DNA from: a phage | DNA: 64,000 nucleotides | NCBI GenBank assembly: GCA_026683435.1 | Contig: GCA_026683435.1_4866.1 | Direction: 5' to 3' (one strand) | Part shown: piece after piece, positions 1-17,448 of the stretch | Numbering within the stretch: the first letter of the stretch is position 1 | How the letters are laid out: every line of letters begins with the position of its first letter | The notes under the pieces: model-generated | The model's database searches: none | What the model was told of the DNA's origin: nothing | Seen by the model: the letters and a program-made list of their open reading frames with translations, nothing else | Made by a program: the position numbers and the translations under genes

Positions 1-1443
1 GATATAGATTAAGAAGTAACGGATGTAGTATTTTTCAGGACGACACACCGCGATGTAATAACGGCCTTCGGGTTCTTTAATACGGTTGATTTCCGTACGA
101 GACGGAATATCAATACCACGCGTCAAAATAACCGAGACAGGTCGTTTACCCATCGGAAAGTCAATCTTTAACGTTATTGACTTATCGACGCTACGGTAGT
201 ATTCCTTAACAGGCTTACCTTTGTCATCGAACAACAAGTCAGTAATATCATTTAAGACATAACCCTTTTCCTGATGCAGAACATCACGCAACGTTGTAGC
301 GAGTTCGTCACGAATATCCAGCGCACGGTACGACAATAAGGGCGGGCGAAGCATTCTGGAGATGGCCAGGTCTTCAAAGAACCAGACATTGGAATCTTCT
401 CCACTGAAATGCATCTTGTCTGCCGGTAATCCATCACCTGCCACGTCAACGAACTTCTTACGTTTAACGAACTCATTGTTAACAACACCGATTGGATCAT
501 ACTGCCGCATCTTCGGTGTATCTTTCCATGCCAGGGCGGCGTGGTTGTTTACAATCGTGTAGATGTTATCCCACGGTTGTTTAGTGAACATTACGGAAAA
601 GTGTGCATCAGGAATCATTTTCCCAATAAACACCAAGTCGTCCTTGTTCTTTGCATGGTTGCCACCAAACATGTAATAGAAAGTTTCATCTTTCACTTTT
701 ACAGTAGGATGGTCCTCGTTCACCAACGGATAGCAATATTTAACCGTACAAATCGGCGGATATGCCGCAAGGTTCATCCCAGCGGCGATGGGCTCGGGTT
801 CCGCGGATGCAGGCAACTCATCCTTCGACCAGTACGGCTGATATGGAACGCCGTCGTTGGTCGCTGTGATGGCTGAACCTTTTCTAGCCAATTCGTCCGC
901 CCGGTCGTTACCGTAGTGGCCGGAGTGTCCTTTGATTTTGATAACCTTAACACCCCGTCCTTCTTTTTTCATCTGCTGTTTGATTTCCCAGATACGAACA
1001 ATAAGTTCTTTGTTCGCCAGCGGAGTACCGTCAGCACGAACCCAACCGCGTTTATGCCAGCCGTCTATCCACTCGTTAAAAGTGTTTACAACGTAACTGG
1101 CATCCACGTAGATGATATAGTTCTTCGCGCGGAAGGGCGCGTTCTCAAACAACGTGATGAAGGCGATTAACTCGCCCACATCTGAGTAGAACTCTTTCGG
1201 AACGGGAATAACGGCGTCGACAAATTGAACGGTGTCCGGCAACTCCGGACACTTCACATCCTGCGGCACTTTTTTGTATCCAACAGTGGTAATCCGTTCT
1301 GAAACACCCGGATGGCTATAAGCCTGACTGTCTTCCAAATCTCCGTTGTTGAATAAATAACCATGAATACCAGCCCCCGAACCTTTCGGGGACTCAGTAT
1401 GACTACCATCGGTATAAATAACCGCTACGTCGACGTCTTTCAT
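1..1443 (-). CDS. RNase HI-like domain protein with long C-terminal extension (partial, continues past window start)
   Basis: Own translation of minus strand from ATG at 1441-1443: MKDVDVAVIYTDGSHTESPKGSGAGIHGYLF..., then ...KIKGHSGHYGNDRADELARKG about 150 aa in; fits RNase HI catalytic signature (DGS near N-terminus, HSGHxxNDxAD). No stop before position 1, so it is missing from the ORF track. Start overlaps stop of upstream gene (TAATG). Confidence 0.6.
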   Translation of the reverse strand, partial: MKDVDVAVIYTDGSHTESPKGSGAGIHGYLFNNGDLEDSQAYSHPGVSERITTVGYKKVPQDVKCPELPDTVQFVDAVIPVPKEFYSDVGELIAFITLFENAPFRAKNYIIYVDASYVVNTFNEWIDGWHKRGWVRADGTPLANKELIVRIWEIKQQMKKEGRGVKVIKIKGHSGHYGNDRADELARKGSAITATNDGVPYQPYWSKDELPASAEPEPIAAGMNLAAYPPICTVKYCYPLVNEDHPTVKVKDETFYYMFGGNHAKNKDDLVFIGKMIPDAHFSVMFTKQPWDNIYTIVNNHAALAWKDTPKMRQYDPIGVVNNEFVKRKKFVDVAGDGLPADKMHFSGEDSNVWFFEDLAISRMLRPPLLSYRALDIRDELATTLRDVLHQEKGYVLNDITDLLFDDKGKPVKEYYRSVDKSITLKIDFPMGKRPVSVILTRGIDIPSRTEINRIKEPEGRYYIAVCRPEKYYIRYFLIYI

Positions 1444-2162
1444 TATTCTCCTCGCAACTGCGGTGGAATGTATTCACCTGTGCACATTTCGCGGTGGGCT
1501 TCTAACATGCGTTCGAAGCCGTACGTACGCGCAACCAGGGCCAAATGATAGATGCGTGCCGTAGAATACGCTTCCTTCGCAGCATCAAAGCTAGCGTTAT
1601 GCTCGTACGCTTCTTTGCCACGGGTCCAGTGGTGCGCTTCTGCGTGCCAGTTCGGTTCCAGACCAAACGCATATGCAATACGTTCTGCAGTCCGGTCAGA
1701 GTCCAATATAGAAAACTTGCGGTACTTGCCCGGCGGGATATCGCACTGCGCGAACGCGTTCATCAGAATTGGAGCATCGAAATCGGGACCGCGCATGGTG
1801 ATAACCATTTTCACGTTGCCCAGATCATCCAACCATTTTTTAGCCGCCCACAGTGCTTCTGGCAGTGGAGTGGTCCCAGAAAACGCTTCAATGCGTGCTT
1901 TCTCGCTCGGTGCGTATTCGGGGTCGCCTTTACCTTCCCAATAACCGACCGTTTGTGGATCGATGTAGAAGATTTCTTTTGCTTTTGCATCGTTGGGGTC
2001 GATTTTGTGGTAACATGAACCGATCATTTTCATTGTCGGAACATCGAATGCCACGTTTGCCAACGTTAAGATGTAGGCATCTGGACGTAAAGCCAGGGTC
2101 TCTAAGTCCGTCCCAACAACAACGGTGGGCGTTAAAACAGGCAGAATTTTAGGATAGGTCAT
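1443..2162 (-). CDS. DEDDh-type 3'-5' exonuclease (DnaQ/DexA-like)
   Basis: 239-aa ORF; motifs VVGTDLETLA (Exo I D-x-E), GPDFDAPILMNAF (Exo II), HNASFDAAKEAY (Exo III H-x4-D); SD GGAGAG upstream of ATG at 2160-2162. Confidence 0.55.
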   Translation of the reverse strand: MTYPKILPVLTPTVVVGTDLETLALRPDAYILTLANVAFDVPTMKMIGSCYHKIDPNDAKAKEIFYIDPQTVGYWEGKGDPEYAPSEKARIEAFSGTTPLPEALWAAKKWLDDLGNVKMVITMRGPDFDAPILMNAFAQCDIPPGKYRKFSILDSDRTAERIAYAFGLEPNWHAEAHHWTRGKEAYEHNASFDAAKEAYSTARIYHLALVARTYGFERMLEAHREMCTGEYIPPQLRGE

Positions 2163-2250
2163 TTCAACTCTCCACGAGATTATATATCACACTATTGACT
2201 ATTAACGTAAAAAAGGAAATCCCCTCTTACCCGAAGGTAAGAGGGAGTTT

Positions 2251-2730
2251 TCATTGCACAAGGCAACTACTTTTGTGCCGTTCGTAGGCACGATTAAAAG
2301 ACTCTCTGTCTTCGCGATAGCTGCGAATGAGAGACTTAATCTGTCGTGACAAATCACGACTAATGTCTTGAGGGCTACGAGAACCAGGGTCGAGATATAT
2401 CCCGGAGGGTATACCATGAAGAGTGGGGCGAATAAACTCTTCACAAAGCGGTGCGGTCATCGGGGTGTGCCACCCTTTAGCTTCTGCATAGTTGTTTACT
2501 GACTTAGCGTACAGATAAACGTAATAAGCATAAGCGTTCACATCCGCAACAAACATTTTCCCTGCCAGCTTTTTCGCCTCAGGACTGTTCCCACCGTTAT
2601 ATACTGGTGGGTGTTCTAAAGGACGAAAAGGCCAATCTCCGGTTGAGGAGTAATCTGGGTCTACGTGACGGATGACCCCAGGGCATCCTGTCAACAATAG
2701 CACCAGTATCGCCACCAAAAATAACTTCAT
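2251..2730 (-). CDS. lipoprotein (possible o-spanin)
   Basis: N-terminus MKLFLVAILVLLLTGC has signal peptide and lipobox LLTGC; lies 9 nt downstream of a membrane-anchored protein gene on the same strand. Confidence 0.5.
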   Translation of the reverse strand: MKLFLVAILVLLLTGCPGVIRHVDPDYSSTGDWPFRPLEHPPVYNGGNSPEAKKLAGKMFVADVNAYAYYVYLYAKSVNNYAEAKGWHTPMTAPLCEEFIRPTLHGIPSGIYLDPGSRSPQDISRDLSRQIKSLIRSYREDRESFNRAYERHKSSCLVQ

Positions 2731-2739
2731 GTATGCTCC

Positions 2740-3249
2740 TCATGGATTATTAAGCGTACTGATAATCTCCTGTCGGAAATCGTTTGCCGCCTGCGACCCC
2801 ACTGGGCGAGAAGCTGCCTGGTGTTTCTTGGCAGGCGGGCTAGACGGATTTAACGGTGCCTGTGGTGTTACCGGCTTGAGTTCTTCAGGCGGAACCGCGG
2901 CCCCAGTGCCTGTCCCTGTTGGAGATTTGGTACCATCATATGGCGATCGAGAACCCAGGCATGTGAAGAGACGATCGTACAGCTTATTGTTCTCCACTTC
3001 GCCATGATCGGACTTCTCTTTTAGCTCCTTATAGGATATCTCCAGATACTGAGTACGCGATTGGACGCTAACCAGTGTGTGGTATTGAACAATGTAGGCA
3101 TATGAGACAAATGCAGAGAACGCGATCAGTGCCACTATCACTAGTGTCACTATTTTCCCGGCTCGTGTTACTTTCTCCCCCTCGCCCGGTTTAAATGCTT
3201 CCCACAGAATCTGTAAGAATGGAAGCAGTTTGAAAACTGATGCTATCAT
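2740..3249 (-). CDS. membrane-anchored protein with Pro-rich C-terminus (possible i-spanin)
   Basis: ORF track 2740..3255 begins at GTG; first ATG at 3247-3249. Hydrophobic helix IVTLVIVALIAFSAFVSYAYIV, charged helical segment, then Pro/Ser-rich tail; immediately followed by the lipoprotein gene. Confidence 0.4.
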   Translation of the reverse strand: MIASVFKLLPFLQILWEAFKPGEGEKVTRAGKIVTLVIVALIAFSAFVSYAYIVQYHTLVSVQSRTQYLEISYKELKEKSDHGEVENNKLYDRLFTCLGSRSPYDGTKSPTGTGTGAAVPPEELKPVTPQAPLNPSSPPAKKHQAASRPVGSQAANDFRQEIISTLNNP

Positions 3250-3273
3250 GCTCACCTCGGAGAGTTTTTAATT

Positions 3274-4653
3274 ATGTATGATTTACAAGGCTTTATTCAA
3301 ATAGCGGCTCTGATTGATAATGGCCCTGGCAACACCGCTCCGGTAGGTGAGTTGTCTGAGCTGTCATATTCGTTCGCTAAAAGCAAGCAGTATTTTACTA
3401 AAGAAAATCTGCAGGTGGAACTGGTTGCTTTTACTTCTAAACGTGACGAGTTGCCTATTAAGACCCCGGCCGTCTTTAGCGACCACGTTCTTACTGTTTC
3501 CCAATGGATCTACCAACAGTCTATCCTGGGCAACTTAAGAAACGACGAAGTTGAATTCCAGCGTTTGCTGTTGGGGCAATTTAATAGTGTCATCAGCGGT
3601 GTTCAGTCTGGCGCGATGATTCAGACTAACAGTAACTGGTTCCCACGTTGGGTCAGTTGGAAACTTGAAACCACAGCAGATAAAGTCGAAGACCCGTCTG
3701 ATGTAAATAACCAGATTATTCTCTGGTTTGCTGATGAAGATTTCAATCAGGACTATACTGGATTTGAAATTGAAGTCCAAATGCCGATATTACCGGTTGA
3801 TACTTTCTTGGCTGTGAAATCTGTAGTCGAAAAGGCAATGGAAGGGTTCAACCTTCCGGATCACCATAATAAGATTAACGAATTAGCTGACGGTTATCCG
3901 TACACTAGCCTGATTACTAACATCTATACTTGGCACGACCAGGAAGACTTTGACTCCACCTTACCGATACCGATGTCGGCTATCATCTACGGACGCGCGG
4001 GTCGTAACCCGAGCAGGATTAAACAAGCGTTACGTGATTACATTTTGGCAAACTCCAGTTTTACTGTGGCGTTGGGTGTCAAAGTGTTCCCAGAAATCTT
4101 TACGACCACCAAGTTCACAATTGTTCCCGGTTGGTCAATTCGTGGGATTCCAAATGAGGAAGATGTTGCGGCATTATACTCGCCGATTCTCCCATATGAT
4201 TTCTGGGTCAAAGCAATCTCCCGATTTGGGGAGTGGACTGTTCAAACCATTACGGAAAAAAATAGTGGAGCGATCTCGATTCCAACTACCGATGTAACGG
4301 ATTTACCGTCCATCTATAAATCGTTGAACGCCGTGGTTATCGCTGGCCCTGAAAACGATTCACGCAAAACGACCCTGCATGACACAATTCCTGACTACGC
4401 ATTAATCGGCACTAATAATGCGGATATTGCGAGAATGTCGAAGAAAACCACCGAGTGGTTGGATCTGTTCTTCCAGGCGTTAATTGCAGCCGAAGAGTAC
4501 CATCCGCACTCCACCCCGTTGGATATCGTGAAGCTCGTAGACGACGTTGATCCTAACGTTTACTTCTACGTCTTCGAATTCGATAACGTGGAATATCGTG
4601 TCTTGGCCCGTAAGGCCATTTGGGATGTTCCTGCGGTAGAGCCAAAAGCCTAA
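3274..4653 (+). CDS. hypothetical protein (459 aa)
   Basis: Long ORF with ATG start, 18 nt divergent from the neighbouring minus-strand gene; no motif recognised. Confidence 0.6.
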   Translation: MYDLQGFIQIAALIDNGPGNTAPVGELSELSYSFAKSKQYFTKENLQVELVAFTSKRDELPIKTPAVFSDHVLTVSQWIYQQSILGNLRNDEVEFQRLLLGQFNSVISGVQSGAMIQTNSNWFPRWVSWKLETTADKVEDPSDVNNQIILWFADEDFNQDYTGFEIEVQMPILPVDTFLAVKSVVEKAMEGFNLPDHHNKINELADGYPYTSLITNIYTWHDQEDFDSTLPIPMSAIIYGRAGRNPSRIKQALRDYILANSSFTVALGVKVFPEIFTTTKFTIVPGWSIRGIPNEEDVAALYSPILPYDFWVKAISRFGEWTVQTITEKNSGAISIPTTDVTDLPSIYKSLNAVVIAGPENDSRKTTLHDTIPDYALIGTNNADIARMSKKTTEWLDLFFQALIAAEEYHPHSTPLDIVKLVDDVDPNVYFYVFEFDNVEYRVLARKAIWDVPAVEPKA

Positions 4654-4663
4654 GGAGGGTTAA

Positions 4664-5287
4664 ATGGCACAACTGTTGCCTAACACGCCTCAGGTTAACC
4701 TTGAGGGGTTGTTCAAGGTTAAGACACCTTATACGTTGCCAGATAAAGTGATTTACCGTGTTGACGCGGTACAGAACTTTCCGAAACTCCAACGTAATAA
4801 TATTGACGTTTATAACAAGTATTATAAACCTGTCGGCCTAACTCGTGACGACTATATCAGCGACGCTAATGTCGAAGCCTCGATTGTAACATTAAAGTCG
4901 AGGGACGGTCAAGTCTACGAGTTGCCTGATACGTACATTGAGACGTATCCTGGACTGAACGGGTTAAATTATAGACGCAATGTGGTGGTTATTGACCTGG
5001 CATTAATACCCGAATACGTCGATGTCACACTGCTAACGAACGACCTGAAAAGCATCTTAGAACGCGGTTTAGGAATCGAAGCACGTGTGGACATCACATC
5101 GATGGATTACGAAGGGACGGTGACGGAAGAAGAACACTTGCAAATGGAAGCGGTGCGTAAAGCCAAAATCCGTGAGCAGGTTCCTCTGACAGAACAAGTT
5201 GCAACACTCACTAAGCAGAATCAAGAACTGCAGGCGTTGAATGATGCGATGTTGAAAATCCTGAAAGATAACGGGTTAACAAATTAA
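4664..5287 (+). CDS. hypothetical protein (207 aa), coiled-coil C-terminus
   Basis: ORF 10 nt after previous gene; C-terminal heptad-like LTEQVATLTKQNQELQALNDAMLKILK; followed by a strong terminator. Confidence 0.6.
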   Translation: MAQLLPNTPQVNLEGLFKVKTPYTLPDKVIYRVDAVQNFPKLQRNNIDVYNKYYKPVGLTRDDYISDANVEASIVTLKSRDGQVYELPDTYIETYPGLNGLNYRRNVVVIDLALIPEYVDVTLLTNDLKSILERGLGIEARVDITSMDYEGTVTEEEHLQMEAVRKAKIREQVPLTEQVATLTKQNQELQALNDAMLKILKDNGLTN

Positions 5288-5302
5288 AGAAAAAAAAAGA
5301 AC

Positions 5303-5340
5303 TACCTACTCCCTTGGGAGTAGGTAGGCTTTTATTTTTA
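5303..5340. terminator. bidirectional rho-independent terminator
   Basis: Stem CTACCTACTCCC / GGGAGTAGGTAG flanked by an A-tract upstream and TTTTATTTTT downstream, between convergent genes 4664..5287 (+) and 5346..6503 (-). Confidence 0.7.
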
Positions 5341-6539: not shown

Positions 6540-6806
6540 CTAGTTACGGTCGGAATTAAAGACGTGCCAGGTACTACGCCAGCGGAAGAATCGGGTTATG
6601 AAACCACGTATGTGGTAGCCTGAGAACAACATCCAGATCGTGAGAAAAAGCTGCGCCCATGGAGTGGTGAGTTCCATCAAATGCGCGACTATCGCACCAA
6701 CTATCAACATTACCGTGGAGAATAACAAACTATACATCATCGGAATGTTGTGGCTATAGCGTTTCTCCATCCAGTAGAGAAAATTTATTAAACGTTTCAC
6801 GAACAC
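6540..6806 (-). CDS. small membrane protein (88 aa, two predicted TM helices)
   Basis: Hydrophobic stretches SLLFSTVMLIVGAIVAHL and LFLTIWMLFSGYHI. Confidence 0.45.
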   Translation of the reverse strand: MFVKRLINFLYWMEKRYSHNIPMMYSLLFSTVMLIVGAIVAHLMELTTPWAQLFLTIWMLFSGYHIRGFITRFFRWRSTWHVFNSDRN

Positions 6807-6814
6807 ACATCCAA

Positions 6815-6852
6815 GAATTAAATAAAAGGTGGTCAGACCCGAAGGTCTGACC
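6815..6852 (-). terminator. rho-independent terminator
   Basis: Stem GGTCAGACC / GGTCTGACC with loop CGAA; on minus strand followed by ACCTTTTATTTAATT; sits after stop of 6858..7451. Confidence 0.6.
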
Positions 6853-6857
6853 GTTAA

Positions 6858-7451
6858 TTACGCATCGGCCTCAAAGAACGGCTGGTTTGGTACCACTGCG
6901 TATTCGAGCACGAACAGATGTTCTGGGGCATCTTCTGCTCGCCACAGTTTGTGGCACGTTGCCAGTTTTTCCAGGATGGTCAACCAGCTGAGCTGGCAGA
7001 AAGCACGGTCGCCGAAGAACAGTTTCTGCAGTGCAATCGACACATCCATATACGCCTGTTTGAAGTCGAGTTCTTTATCGTAACCCGCCGACTGTCGCCA
7101 CGTCAGCACGAAACCTGCTTCGGTTTCGTTAATTGCTGGACGTAAACCACAAATCCACATCAGTGCCAGATTAACGTTCCAGTCGAATTCGATACCTTCG
7201 TCTTCGTCATCACCAAACGCCGCGTTTAACGCATCGTAGAAACCGTGGTTCTCTGCGAACCATTCGCCGTACTCAACGTAGACCGGTGCTTCGACAGCTT
7301 CCCCATCGACTTCACCGATAGGACGCTCTACATAGTTCGGGTTGGTTTGAACGTGTTCCGCACCCGCGCGAATTAATTCGTAGACATCTTTGGCGGTGAT
7401 TTGTGCGGCTGTTTTAAGACCTGGATACCAGGGGCGTGTTACGAGTGTCAA
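6858..7451 (-). CDS. hypothetical protein (197 aa)
   Basis: ORF; acidic protein, no motif recognised. Confidence 0.5.
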   Translation of the reverse strand: MTLVTRPWYPGLKTAAQITAKDVYELIRAGAEHVQTNPNYVERPIGEVDGEAVEAPVYVEYGEWFAENHGFYDALNAAFGDDEDEGIEFDWNVNLALMWICGLRPAINETEAGFVLTWRQSAGYDKELDFKQAYMDVSIALQKLFFGDRAFCQLSWLTILEKLATCHKLWRAEDAPEHLFVLEYAVVPNQPFFEADA

Positions 7452-8170
7452 AGCAATGCTCCTTTCATGATAGTGTTATTTGCCAGTAGTGTACCGGCCG
7501 CAGGTGATATTTTGGTGTACAGCGTATCCCAGATTTTCTGAAGCTCAGCGACGCGTTGGTCGCGGTCTTCCTTCGCAAAAGCAAGCTGACGTGTTTCAGC
7601 TTTCGGTGGCGTCATTTTCGCACCGTAGAATGCTGCGTCTTTTCGGTAGCTGTCCATCCAGCGTTTCCCGACCGATGATTTCTTTTTAATCATCGCAACA
7701 GCAGCGCTCTCACCGAAGCGGTAGCCTAATGCAATTTCGGCTGTGCTCGGCTTGCGTTTGAGTTGTTTTGTCAGATGATCCTCGATGTGTTTCATGTAAA
7801 CAGCAGCAAGCTGTACAGCATATTTCGGTTTATTAAGGTCTGCGTTCTTTGGGATGTTAAGTTGTTTCCCATACAGACGTATCATGGAGCGTTTAGTACC
7901 TGTCGTCATTTGGACAACACTACTAGCACTGCTCGATTTATTCTTACCCACGTTTTTATTAAAACGGGATTCGCGGTAAATGGTGGTCGCAAGCATCCCG
8001 GCATGTACACCTTGCTTTTGAGATGCAGAGACGATGAGAGGTTTAATCTCATTGAACTGGTCCTGGATAAGGACAAATTCTTTTTGATGTTTGTTACTGG
8101 TGGACTGGTAAGAAGCGTTGCTGTTGAATGTGGTCACTGCTACCAGAAGAAATAAAATGGTGCGAAACAT
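7448..8170 (-). CDS. secreted protein, possibly lytic transglycosylase (SLT)-like
   Basis: N-terminal signal peptide MFRTILFLLVAVTTFNSNA; segment YRESRFNKNV...SASSVVQMTTGT loosely resembles the SLT ES...S..GA.GLMQ motif. Confidence 0.35.
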   Translation of the reverse strand: MFRTILFLLVAVTTFNSNASYQSTSNKHQKEFVLIQDQFNEIKPLIVSASQKQGVHAGMLATTIYRESRFNKNVGKNKSSSASSVVQMTTGTKRSMIRLYGKQLNIPKNADLNKPKYAVQLAAVYMKHIEDHLTKQLKRKPSTAEIALGYRFGESAAVAMIKKKSSVGKRWMDSYRKDAAFYGAKMTPPKAETRQLAFAKEDRDQRVAELQKIWDTLYTKISPAAGTLLANNTIMKGALL

Positions 8171-10695: not shown

Positions 10696-11348
10696 GAGCT
10701 GAATTCCTAAGTGAGCTTTCACCTGCGATGAAAGCGAGTAACGAAGAATTGCGTTTGTGTTTTCTTAAGTTTACCGGTAAACTTAAGCGGTGTATACCGC
10801 TGCAGGTAAAGACCAGTTCTCTATCGGAACCGTGTCTTTGATCAACAACGTCGTTGAAAACGCTGCGATGCTGAGGTAACCTTCCGTCGCCACATTCGCT
10901 CATGGCGCTTCTGATTACCACGCCAGTCTTCCCCGACTGTACGTGAAACTGCAAAATCATCCGGCCCGCAGACTTCCGCGATGTCTGCTAGAAGGTTCTT
11001 TGAAGACCCTATAGCCATCCCCGCGCTCGAAAGAACGATACGCCGGGTTGGCACGGCCGCCCCTGAACCCACGACCACGGGATCAGAGACTGTTTCACTG
11101 TTACATGATACTTCTCCCACTTCGTAATTACCCTCCTGTTAAAACCAACCTTGCGTCAATGCAAGGATTGCGCCTAGGGCGTATGCGCCTGCTCCTAGTA
11201 CCAGACTACAGATGATACACCCAACCCACTTCACTAAAATAACCATGATGCCAGAAATGCTCCGATTGCACAGATGATAATCGTAATGCCAAGGTCTGTC
11301 CAGGTGGCACCATCATACGCACCTGTTGCAATCATCGCCGCGTTGACA

Positions 11349-11552
11349 CTATTCACGACTGTCATAAGCCGGGTCCCTTAAACGCGGGGGCTTGCTCCAC
11401 AGATTACCGAAGTAAACCCCTTCTAAGAACACCAAAACAACTAAGCCCCAAAAGGCAGGCGTAGCGCGAGACATGAAAATACCGAGTAGCACCACAGTGT
11501 GCATTACCACAACTGCCCAAAACTTTAAACGACCAGGTTTACGTCTTGCCAT
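11349..11552 (-). CDS. small membrane protein
   Basis: Likely start MARRKPGRLKF, followed by hydrophobic WAVVVMHTVVLLGIFM and FWGLVVLVFLEGVYF. Confidence 0.35.
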   Translation of the reverse strand: MARRKPGRLKFWAVVVMHTVVLLGIFMSRATPAFWGLVVLVFLEGVYFGNLWSKPPRLRDPAYDSRE

Positions 11553-11639
11553 GGAATGCCCATCCTTTCGTGCGGATAATCCAACCCCAGGCACCACGAA
11601 TCAACCACAGTGCAATACCGGTTAATACGATACCTTCAA

Positions 11640-11831
11640 TCATGTCCGTTCTCCTATATCTCGCCACTCACAACGCGTGTCGAACAGACGTTCTTTAAGA
11701 GCAGCAGCTAAATAAACGACCGCAGCGATAACCACTACGGTTGCACAAAAGGAGAGGTACAGTACCATCACAACAAACTGAAGGAACTGAAAACCCCACC
11801 AAGCCCATAAGCGCCAACCGTTATGATGCAT
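11640..11831 (-). CDS. small membrane protein (63 aa)
   Basis: W-rich N-terminus then hydrophobic FVVMVLYLSFCATVVVIAAVVYLAAAL; its start overlaps the stop of the SbcC-like gene. Confidence 0.35.
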   Translation of the reverse strand: MHHNGWRLWAWWGFQFLQFVVMVLYLSFCATVVVIAAVVYLAAALKERLFDTRCEWRDIGERT

Positions 11832-15709: not shown

Positions 15710-15738
15710 GTTATAACATCTGTCTGAAAACTTTTCGG

Positions 15739-16122
15739 TTACTGGTCGAGCGCTATTGAACCACGCACTTCGCCTTGTTGTTCAATAACCAGGAGGCGCT
15801 GTTTGGTTTTCGTATTGTAAGCGAGCGACGCGCGAAGCGTCGGGTCGCACGTTATTGTCTCTACTGGCACAATCTCTTGTGCCTTTGAGTTCAACAGAAA
15901 GTAATAACCTGCCGGACAAGTTTCCTCGCCCTTTGCGTGGACTAGGATGTACTCGTCGTGCCGGCTGACTTCTTCACATCTACCATCGTCGCCAGTACAG
16001 ACTTCGAACGAAGGCGGGTTGTACTGATACGGTGTGCCTGGTAGTAAATCTTCTACGCTGGTTGTAGCTGAAGCAGAAGCGGTCAAGAACACCGCCGCGA
16101 TAATACCCATAAATCCACGCAT
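15739..16122 (-). CDS. secreted small protein (signal peptide, Cys-containing)
   Basis: N-terminus MRGFMGIIAAVFLTASASA; six Cys in the mature part. Confidence 0.5.
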   Translation of the reverse strand: MRGFMGIIAAVFLTASASATTSVEDLLPGTPYQYNPPSFEVCTGDDGRCEEVSRHDEYILVHAKGEETCPAGYYFLLNSKAQEIVPVETITCDPTLRASLAYNTKTKQRLLVIEQQGEVRGSIALDQ

Positions 16123-16135
16123 GTTGTTTCCTTAC

Positions 16136-16546
16136 TTAAAAGTCGAGTTTATTGATGCCCACGTTTTTCTTAATCGTAGGGTCGTACATGATAACCGTCA
16201 GGGCATTGTCGCCTGGGTCGCGAGTAAACTCGGCAACGGCTTCACCACTGCAGGCTTGGTTATCATTATAGTTCATGGATTCGGCTTGCCCGGTTGCCAT
16301 GTTAATGACCCCGTATTCAGGGTCGCCACATGCGACACCGCCCATCGTTTTCACTAACAGATAACGGTTGTTATCGGACATCGCAACGATCTGGCAGCTA
16401 CCGCCTTGTACGTCAGAGTTCTGGCACCAGAACTCTCCGCCGTATTCGTGATCGTTAACAACTTTTGGTAACTCGATACTTCCAGCACGAGCGAAGAAGC
16501 TAATGGCCAGAGTAGCAAGTAAAACTGGTAATAAAAAATGTTTCAT
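16136..16546 (-). CDS. secreted small protein (signal peptide, Cys-containing)
   Basis: N-terminus MKHFLLPVLLATLAISFFARA; SD GAGGTG upstream. Confidence 0.55.
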   Translation of the reverse strand: MKHFLLPVLLATLAISFFARAGSIELPKVVNDHEYGGEFWCQNSDVQGGSCQIVAMSDNNRYLLVKTMGGVACGDPEYGVINMATGQAESMNYNDNQACSGEAVAEFTRDPGDNALTVIMYDPTIKKNVGINKLDF

Positions 16547-16568
16547 AATAGCACCTCAATTTTTTGAG

Positions 16569-17060
16569 TTATTCTGAATAGTCGATTGTTTTGATGGTTT
16601 CCATACCGTAGTACATAGCGATGGAGGCCAGAGTTTTGGTATCCGGTCGCTGTACAAAACCGGCCCTGAAATCTTTGCTGCAAATTTTCTCCACTGATAG
16701 TTCATCACGATTAGGGATAAGCCATAACGCGTCACCGTTGTGACGGTCGACTGCACCCCACCAACCTCCTGGGCAATCTTTATCGCCCGGACGGTGTACG
16801 ATAGCGACACGACCGTTGAAGGATATGTCAACTACACGACACTGTTTCTTAAGCAGCTTACGCGCATTGCACCAGAACGGCTTATCATTAAGATTGATGG
16901 TGCGGGTATATGCTGGAATGCTGCCGTTAATACTGCCCTGGAACCCGCTGAATTCGTCAGCGCGTGCCTTAGAAATCCGTAGCCCAACAACAACTGCCAT
17001 CAACAGCACAGTAAAAAGCACCACTTTGGCCAAGTGGCGATTAACGTTATTGCATTTCAT
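16569..17060 (-). CDS. secreted or membrane-anchored small protein
   Basis: ORF track 16569..17105; likely start MKCNNVNRHLAKVVLFTVLLMAVVVGL (signal/anchor) at 17058-17060 with SD GGAGAT. Confidence 0.5.
   Translation of the reverse strand: MKCNNVNRHLAKVVLFTVLLMAVVVGLRISKARADEFSGFQGSINGSIPAYTRTINLNDKPFWCNARKLLKKQCRVVDISFNGRVAIVHRPGDKDCPGGWWGAVDRHNGDALWLIPNRDELSVEKICSKDFRAGFVQRPDTKTLASIAMYYGMETIKTIDYSE
16578..16587 (-). promoter_or_regulatory. recurrent AATCGACTAT motif (2 of 3)
   Basis: Lies in the 3' end of 16569..17060, 32-41 nt upstream of ATG 16546. Confidence 0.25.
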
Positions 17061-17448
17061 TTTTGATATCTCCACGAATGAGGGTGATGCGACCAACGAG
17101 CACATCGTTGTGATAAAAACTCACAGCAACCAGATCTGGTAATTCCAACGGTGATACGCTGACCGAAGTGACTTTTGGTTGATCGCACGATATGTCGATT
17201 AACCGCTGATACATTTTCAATTTCTTATCAGCGATAACCAGCCCTGTGCAGTTCTTACCGTCCGTCAGTCTGTAGATTTGTAACTGTTCGACCTCACGCA
17301 TCAGTTCCGGTTTTTCATTCGGCGCAATGCCATAATCCGAATCAGCTGATGTGTATTCAGTCACGTCTGGCTTATCGAAAGCATAAGTTGCTGCAATGCC
17401 ACATGCGGCCAGAACTACTACTGCTTGTAAGAACTTCTTGATAGTCAT
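17047..17448 (-). CDS. putative lipoprotein
   Basis: N-terminus MTIKKFLQAVVVLAACG with lipobox-like LAAC. Confidence 0.5.
   Translation of the reverse strand: MTIKKFLQAVVVLAACGIAATYAFDKPDVTEYTSADSDYGIAPNEKPELMREVEQLQIYRLTDGKNCTGLVIADKKLKMYQRLIDISCDQPKVTSVSVSPLELPDLVAVSFYHNDVLVGRITLIRGDIKNEMQ

Follow-up and report, generated by a model that had tools for sequence, protein, structure and literature searches.

The question raised by this locus is whether two small adjacent genes of a giant phage encode a two-component spanin, that is, an inner-membrane subunit (i-spanin) together with a lipoprotein of the outer membrane (o-spanin). The genes lie at 2740..3249 and 2251..2730 on the minus strand of a 64,000-nucleotide stretch of phage DNA (NCBI GenBank assembly GCA_026683435.1, contig GCA_026683435.1_4866.1), and this whole stretch is called the window below. 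The original prediction had proposed a spanin arrangement for a membrane-anchored protein with a Pro-rich tail followed 9 nt later by a lipoprotein, and had noted as reservations that the pair lies about 44 kb from the endolysin and that a lipoprotein of 159 amino acids (aa) is large for an o-spanin. We conclude that the two genes probably encode a two-component spanin with separated genes, which would be a new and unannotated sequence family of a known kind. This assignment is based on the architecture of the two proteins, their strict coupling, their core-like distribution and the absence of other spanin candidates.

Over positions 1400-4700 the window shares 99.3% identity with Escherichia phage vB_EcoM_EC001 and 97% with Salmonella phage SPN3US, and it belongs to an SPN3US-like jumbo phage. 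SPN3US itself is a Seoulvirus with a genome of 240 kb and is listed among the nucleus-forming jumbo phages. The gene at 2740..3249 corresponds to SPN3US_0204 and that at 2251..2730 to SPN3US_0205; both were labelled "hypothetical protein" in every record listed, and their products fall into PHROG 8719 and PHROG 8165, respectively, two families of unknown function. Neither protein matched any other family in the Pfam, NCBIfam, PADLOC or PDB sequence profiles, which we count as support for the spanin reading. The Rfam scan and the base composition revealed nothing unusual.

Gene structure and predicted topology of the pair

The open reading frames (ORFs), the membrane anchor, the Pro-rich tail and the 9-nt gap described originally were all confirmed by ORF calls, Kyte-Doolittle (KD) hydropathy and AlphaFold2 (AF2) models. 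The i-spanin candidate at 2740..3249 (minus strand) is a 169-aa protein with orthologues in 73 phage records. Its Shine-Dalgarno site GAGGTGAG, read from the sequence at 3251..3258 (minus strand), is given as 5 nt upstream of the ATG at 3249. The 169-aa start at this ATG was preferred to the GTG at 3255, which opens a mechanical ORF of 171 aa, since the GTG falls within the Shine-Dalgarno site and the orthologues begin at the ATG. The SPN3US records (NC_027402/JN641803) begin gene 0204 at Met14 and give a protein of 156 aa, which is 13 aa too short and lacks the N-terminal amphipathic helix, the most conserved part of the protein. The orthologue of Vibrio phage pVa-21 was annotated as 99 aa instead of 139 aa.

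The N-terminal amphipathic helix (aa 3-19, 3193..3243, AF2 helix 3-19, minus strand as are all features of the pair) is predicted to be cytoplasmic or interfacial and is near-invariant in 11 orthologues. The N-terminal 19 residues are hydrophobic and too polar to span the membrane (Hessa-scale sum +3 to +6.6, with +6.6 in the window). The sole clearly membrane-spanning segment is the predicted transmembrane (TM) helix at aa 33-55 (3085..3153), where KD values reach 2.48 and the Hessa-scale sum is -1.46 (-1.5 to +1.3 in the 11 orthologues). Around this helix, 3-4 Lys/Arg were counted in 15 residues on the N-terminal side versus 0-2 on the C-terminal side in 11 of 11 orthologues from four genera, and an N-in/C-out (type-II) topology is therefore predicted; the bias is weak in distant relatives. 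Thus, TM prediction, which had been named as a check of the spanin proposal, gave one TM helix with the bulk of the protein facing the periplasm and not a cytoplasmic topology.

In the AF2 model a continuous helix runs from residue 29 to 97, so that the TM helix extends 42 residues into the periplasm (aa 56-97, 2959..3084) and stops exactly at Cys97 (codon 2959..2961). Cys97 is invariant in the 11 orthologues, and a Cys is found at the equivalent place in six distant partners. A disordered linker rich in Pro, Ser, Thr and Gly follows at aa 98-150 (2800..2958), with 11 Pro in 53 residues and a predicted local distance difference test (pLDDT) score below 50; a PY[DE]G motif just after Cys97 is conserved, while the linker varies in sequence and length. 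The protein ends in a conserved predicted helix at aa 153-167 (2749..2793, N.FRQEI..TLN), for which we infer a contact with the lipoprotein. Altogether, the AF2 helices 56-97, 140-146 and 153-167 make up about 56% of the periplasmic part, in a model of low confidence from a shallow alignment (pLDDT 59.7).

The o-spanin candidate at 2251..2730 (minus strand) is a 159-aa protein that also has orthologues in 73 records. The proposed lipobox LLTGC is present and canonical in sequence: the lipoprotein signal peptide occupies aa 1-15 (signal MKLFLVAILVLLLTG) and is followed by the lipobox Cys16, so that LLTG precedes C16, with Pro at position +2 (2683..2730). The lipobox Cys is retained in >=90% of 35 family members. 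The +2 residue is T, S, N or V in relatives and was never Asp in 11 orthologues, and from Pro at +2 here and the absence of Asp there, Lol sorting to the outer membrane is predicted. The mature protein begins with a disordered Pro-containing tether (aa 17-49, 2584..2682, pLDDT <50), which differs widely in length across the family, the extra alignment columns numbering from almost none to about 90, and continues with two long predicted helices (aa 50-84 and 120-157, within 2260..2583; AF2, moderate confidence, whole model pLDDT 60.6). Cys96 (2443..2445) and Cys156 (2263..2265) were the only invariant columns in an alignment of 35 sequences. No C-terminal hydrophobic segment is present, and the protein is not a unimolecular spanin of the T1 gp11 type.

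Both ORFs are on the minus strand, and the lipoprotein ORF starts 9 nt past the TGA of the inner-membrane ORF. The Shine-Dalgarno site GAGGAG of the lipoprotein gene (2736..2741, read from the sequence) overlaps this TGA, and with the site placed on the upstream stop codon the two genes are, as judged from the sequence, translationally coupled. An intrinsic terminator with an 11-bp stem, a TTCG loop and a T-run (2221..2246, minus strand) follows 4 nt after the lipoprotein stop and ends the two-gene unit. The short gap, the overlapping Shine-Dalgarno site and the terminator together define a compact, coupled and terminated two-gene unit. In 16 relatives the intergenic gap ranged from -4 to +14 nt, with the i gene before the o gene. 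A scan for sigma-70 promoters remained at background level, which is probably irrelevant as the phage has its own RNA polymerases.

Conservation and uniqueness of the pair

A tblastn search with either protein hit 73 phage records, of which 34 are Erwinia, 33 Salmonella, two each Escherichia and Cronobacter, and one each Proteus and Enterobacteria. Both genes give the same genus and host counts, and the records listed match. The two genes were adjacent and in the same order in all 15 loci inspected, which came from five phage groups (Seoulvirus, Machinavirus, Wellingtonvirus, Derbicusvirus and Vibrio phage pVa-21) and from five metagenomic contigs. A profile search with the lipoprotein against 1.84 billion representative proteins returned 38 clusters at 50% identity, and relatives at 18-30% identity reach Vibrio phages and metagenomic contigs. 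Down to this level the TM helix, the lipobox, the adjacency, the gene order and the three periplasmic Cys were kept, which makes the pairing more than chance. The distant inner-membrane partners have an amphipathic N-terminus of about 30 residues, one TM helix, a heptad-patterned helix and a short C-terminal helix, with a Cys about 45 residues past the membrane and usually a PY(D/E) motif. The combined periplasmic length (periplasmic part of the i subunit plus mature o subunit) is about 259 aa here and 248-264 aa in 14 of 17 pairs; the lengths of single subunits differ by up to 46 aa, and the correlation between i and o lengths (r = -0.38) was not significant.

This distribution bears on a different function for the pair. 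Phage-encoded outer-membrane lipoproteins are often exclusion factors, and no homology ties the pair to lysis, so it might instead serve superinfection exclusion or envelope protection by blocking DNA entry, receptors or the lysozyme of competitors, as with T4 Imm/Sp, Cor or Llp. However, known exclusion lipoproteins work without a partner and are accessory, with a patchy distribution, whereas the two genes here are core-like and always occur together, in all 73 related genomes and in the distant marine and metagenomic relatives. The build of linker plus tether and the roughly conserved summed length also fit a periplasmic bridge, and PADLOC gave no match. We consider the exclusion function very unlikely.

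The uniqueness of the pair was determined in the complete SPN3US genome, where every ORF and start codon was scanned for lipoprotein signals, first strictly and then loosely. SPN3US_0204/0205 was the only adjacent pair of membrane anchor and lipoprotein in the 240-kb genome, and the scan gave no embedded lipobox ORF that is preceded by a ribosome-binding site. Embedded lipobox ORFs were rejected as spanins for lack of a partner, a C-terminal TM helix or a ribosome-binding site. Also rejected was the lone lipoprotein at 45145..45636 (plus strand), which has neither a C-terminal TM helix nor a membrane-protein neighbour; it is a 163-aa protein with LLAG before Cys17, belongs to PHROG 9559 (unknown function), looks beta-rich and globular, and is transcribed alone against its neighbours. 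A role in exclusion or in the inhibition of lysozyme is possible for it. A LAAC-containing secreted protein at about 17.0-17.4 kb, in which the site is ambiguous, was likewise set aside. It is the first in a tandem array of four genes at about 15730..17440 (minus strand; SPN3US 165783..167492), all of which encode secreted, Cys-rich proteins (about 127-163 aa) that have signal peptides; the LAAC site of this first protein resembles a lipobox, and the four appear to be paralogues that form a periplasmic family.

The lone lipoprotein lies 1.6 kb from the endolysin, and in about 13-15% of the phages that infect Gram-negative hosts no spanin can be recognised. The true disruptor could then be elsewhere (the lipoprotein at 45145..45636, a disruptin-like peptide, or none at all), and the pair at 2251..3249 would be unrelated membrane proteins. 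Against this, the lipoprotein near the endolysin looks globular and beta-rich, has no C-terminal TM helix or membrane partner and is on the opposite strand, while the strict coupling and co-conservation of the pair argue for one joint function. We regard a disruptor elsewhere as about as unlikely as exclusion.

Endolysins and the layout of lysis genes

The distance of about 44 kb stated in the original prediction holds for the GH108/PG_binding_3 endolysin at 47217..47834 (minus strand). It does not hold for all muralytic enzymes of the window, since a secreted SLT lytic transglycosylase (Pfam SLT, 7448..8170, minus strand) is encoded only 4.2 kb upstream of the pair on the same strand, and its catalytic domain is related to that of the phiKZ endolysin gp144 (tblastn E 4e-10). 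The distance is in any case no cause for concern, because proximity to an endolysin is not a criterion for a spanin and the T4 spanin genes are not near t and e either. The SLT protein has the Sec signal MFRTILFLLVAVTTFNSNA (ending NSNA, with SY after the cut) with a cleavable-looking AXA-type site, and a signal was present in eight of eight homologues of the clade. It is possible that this enzyme is the muralytic partner of the pair.

Downstream of the SLT gene, 6540..6806 (minus strand) encodes an 88-aa protein with two TM helices and a basic C-terminus, which is holin- or pinholin-like and has only a weak, sub-threshold match to Pfam DUF4231. At this place Erwinia phage Kwan has an 88-aa two-TM gene and one metagenomic contig has four small membrane-protein genes, while no small membrane-protein gene was found there in CR5 and pVa-21. 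Three consecutive tiny membrane proteins of 63, 67 and 43 aa were observed at about 11230..11830 (minus strand; SPN3US 171400..171997); the 67-aa protein has two TM helices and a charged C-terminus, and from their sequences these may be holin/antiholin-like candidates.

No contiguous holin-endolysin-spanin cluster was found: the SLT gene and the gene of the two-TM protein lie 3.3-4.9 kb upstream of the pair in separate transcription units. The region from the SLT gene to the pair is divided into at least three transcription units by a strong bidirectional terminator at 5302..5327, between convergent genes at 5287 and 5346, and by a minus-strand terminator at 6831..6852 after the gene ending at 6858. 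In phiKZ, the spanins, holin gp142 and regulator gp143 are encoded at the position after gp139/gp140. Directly after the homologues of gp139/gp140, SPN3US has at 84978..86286 (outside the window) two genes, one for a 190-aa protein in which a large cytoplasmic domain is joined to C-terminal TM helices and one for a soluble 212-aa protein. These two proteins were rejected as homologues of gp142/gp143, as they share no sequence similarity with them and the equivalence is positional and topological only, and no spanin pair was found in SPN3US at the position syntenic with the phiKZ lysis cassette. The lysis genes of the SPN3US-like clade thus appear to be dispersed.

In all the genomes and contigs inspected, an SLT with a signal peptide is encoded upstream of the pair. 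It is unusual for a phage of a Gram-negative host to export a muralytic enzyme constitutively, and such an enzyme would need some control. The pair could accordingly be a periplasmic scaffold or regulator of the secreted SLT that serves envelope remodelling, with no outer-membrane disruption of its own, for example by controlling peptidoglycan turnover as the infected cell swells or by restraining the enzyme until lysis; the structured, Cys-stapled helical domain of the lipoprotein could bind such a partner. But the whole region is one syntenic block, consisting of the signal-peptide SLT gene, 0-5 small genes (often encoding two TM helices), two opposite-strand virion genes, the pair, and genes for an exonuclease and an RNase H, so that proximity is not independent evidence. 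Moreover, the pair is its own terminated unit and is parted from the SLT gene by terminators and the two opposite-strand virion genes, it has no link to known lytic-transglycosylase inhibitors or scaffolds, and the phage would still lack an outer-membrane disruptor. We consider the scaffold function quite unlikely. None of the three alternatives, i.e., exclusion, a disruptor elsewhere and an SLT scaffold, has positive support.

Proposed mechanism and comparison with known spanins

Several observations weigh against the spanin assignment. In the PHROG scan at E values up to 10, the two proteins gave only their own families 8719 and 8165 and no "Rz-like spanin" PHROG (214, 456, 7584). Alignment by hhalign to the spanins of Ea35-70, EL, OBP and phiKZ reached a probability of at most 24%, with only the TM segment or the lipobox/signal aligned, and BLAST/tblastn comparison with the curated jumbo-phage spanins including 201phi2-1 revealed no similarity beyond these features. 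A Foldseek search (BFVD) with the lipoprotein returned its own family only, followed by phiKZ-like lipoproteins of SL2 and PA7 at non-significant E values of 0.4-0.9; for the inner-membrane protein nothing significant was obtained, and confidence is low in the AF2 models of both proteins (pLDDT about 60). Whereas lambda Rz1 is Pro-rich and unstructured, most of the o subunit is predicted to be helical and structured, and the i subunit carries an unusually long and highly conserved cytoplasmic N-terminus. The orthologues have a common heptad register, yet a crude test gave z values of 0.1-2.0 per sequence, and the window sequence was not significant. Because the pair lies in the same syntenic block in every context, distant relatives included, its neighbours give no independent clue to function. 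Finally, no expression, mutant or proteomic data for the pair were found in the literature searched.

On the other side, the i-spanin/o-spanin arrangement is supported by the topology, the lipobox, the gene order, the conserved Cys, the co-occurrence and the uniqueness of the pair in the genome. For the expected coiled coil the results point both ways: the periplasmic helix is predicted by AF2, and distant orthologues show a classical heptad, coiled-coil-like sequence at its position, whereas the window's own heptad test falls short. Comparison with annotated spanins was also divided, as the pair has the build and lengths of jumbo-phage spanins and no similarity to them in sequence or fold. 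Two-component spanins are defined by architecture and not by homology (Kongari et al. 2018, PMC6139136), and in the class as set out by Summer 2007 and Kongari et al. 2018 the o gene is embedded in the i gene, overlaps it or directly follows it, as is the case for the pair. In the survey of Kongari et al., 54 of 125 o-spanin families are singletons, and the i-spanins are similarly diverse. The accessible part of its supplementary lists does not include SPN3US.

[quoted passage not shown] The lipoprotein would leave the cytoplasm through Sec, receive its lipid at Cys16 and be carried by Lol to the outer membrane's inner leaflet, where the o-spanin would present a flexible tether, about 33 residues long, and a domain of two helices with Cys96 and Cys156. 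Binding of the subunits via their C-terminal parts would give a periplasm-spanning bridge that is threaded through, and held extended by, the peptidoglycan mesh. When the holin fires and a muralytic enzyme (GH108, the nearby SLT, or both) clears this mesh, the complexes would no longer be restrained and could collapse. The collapse would draw the membranes together, fuse the inner and outer membranes and thereby destroy the outer membrane, leading to virion release. By our own arithmetic, the periplasmic helix (42 residues), the linker (about 50 residues), the tether (33 residues) and the helices of 35-38 residues can together be longer than the periplasm is wide; this geometry and the roughly conserved summed length fit a periplasmic bridge, and neither proves it. 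To the genes, signals, predicted topology and secondary structure, conservation, co-occurrence, adjacency and uniqueness reported above, the model would add subunit contact, disulfide-linked oligomers, late expression and membrane fusion, all by analogy with the lambda, T4 and phiKZ models.

In a more elaborate version of the spanin assignment, the pair, whose roughly 40 sequence clusters come from jumbo phages of enterobacteria, vibrios and uncultured hosts, would be a "long spanin" that differs in mechanism. This version would combine a folded o subunit in the form of a disulfide-stapled helical hairpin, a SNARE-like three-helix bundle, coupling to a cytoplasmic signal and cooperation with the SLT. 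Here, the i subunit would use its Pro-rich arm to reach the hairpin on its variable tether, and its C-terminal helix would complete the three-helix bundle. Firing would be linked to a cytoplasmic or inner-membrane signal by the amphipathic helix that is invariant on the cytoplasmic side, and together with the Sec-exported SLT the pair might provide a lysis route that is independent of, or only partly dependent on, a holin. We consider this combination, taken jointly, unlikely.

SPN3US serves as the genetic model of those giant phages that are phiKZ-like and form a nucleus, and the lysis genes of its clade are essentially unannotated. Relatives of SPN3US are under development for use against Salmonella, E. 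coli, Erwinia, Cronobacter and Vibrio. If the assignment is true, it provides a testable lysis gene set for the clade, an annotation for 73 related genomes and a sizeable new sequence family for the spanin catalogue, and it would mean that SPN3US-like phages, unlike phiKZ, scatter their lysis genes. It would also aid pipelines for spanin finding, which depend on homology or endolysin proximity. The concept of spanin action would be left unchanged, and the assignment would not surprise a specialist.

Among known systems, the pair is most like the long spanins of nucleus-forming and other jumbo myophages, i.e., phiKZ gp141/gp141.1 and those of 201phi2-1, EL (gp110 pair), OBP (OBP_139 pair) and Ea35-70 (Ea357_015/014). 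Kongari et al. 2018 (PMC6139136) described the spanins of these five phages as singletons with unusually long subunits. The curated jumbo-phage i-spanins are 146-168 aa and the o-spanins 120-167 aa long, with summed periplasmic lengths of 233-265 aa, of which those of 249-265 aa were flagged "Too long?" (PMC6139136). The 159 aa of the lipoprotein, which had been thought large for an o-spanin, are therefore not anomalous beside the o-spanins of phiKZ, EL, OBP and Ea35-70, and the sum of about 259 aa here falls within the jumbo-phage range. As in the pair, the jumbo-phage i subunits have a short amphipathic N-terminus, one TM helix, one helical stretch and a tail rich in Pro, Ser and Gly, and the o subunits have helical segments and an internal Cys. 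For the i-spanins of phiKZ and Ea35-70, too, the predictor of Kongari et al. gave no coiled coil (PMC6139136). Most spanins have periplasmic Cys, as the pair does, and only 21 of 526 curated spanin pairs lack one.

The phiKZ proteins gp141/gp141.1 complement lambda RzamRz1am (Manohar et al. 2026, PMC12894885) and their genes share a cassette with those for the holin (gp142), the regulator (gp143) and the SLT endolysin (gp144) (PMC12894885). An SLT-type muralytic enzyme is thus near the spanin genes in phiKZ too. The pair in the window differs in that it is not part of a contiguous holin/endolysin cassette, its genes are separated by 9 nt whereas the jumbo-phage spanin genes overlap by 116-194 nt, and it does not match the "Rz-like spanin" PHROGs as the phiKZ spanins do. 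Positional orthology with the Ea35-70 spanin pair was rejected, since the neighbourhood differs.

In gene arrangement the pair resembles T4 PseT.3/PseT.2, the prototype of the separated architecture (117 and 83 aa; PMC6139136, Fig. 8), with which it shares the i-then-o order without overlap and a location not near the holin (t) and endolysin (e) genes. No sequence similarity to the T4 spanins was detected in the PHROG scans. The T4 o-spanin has secondary structure and two essential periplasmic Cys, and the o subunit here also has two Cys; the T4 subunits are much smaller, and the T4 i-spanin has no Cys and consists of two helices joined by a short linker. With lambda Rz/Rz1, the pair has in common a type-II inner-membrane subunit and an outer-membrane lipoprotein as well as an i-subunit Cys near residue 97-99, and the lambda subunits have been proposed to interact via their C-termini and to fuse the membranes, as we propose here. 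In contrast to the large helical o subunit of the pair, lambda Rz1 is embedded in Rz and has 40 mature residues that are Pro-rich and unstructured, and where lambda Rz has two coiled-coil helices, the i subunit here has one long helix and a disordered, Pro-rich linker of about 50 residues.

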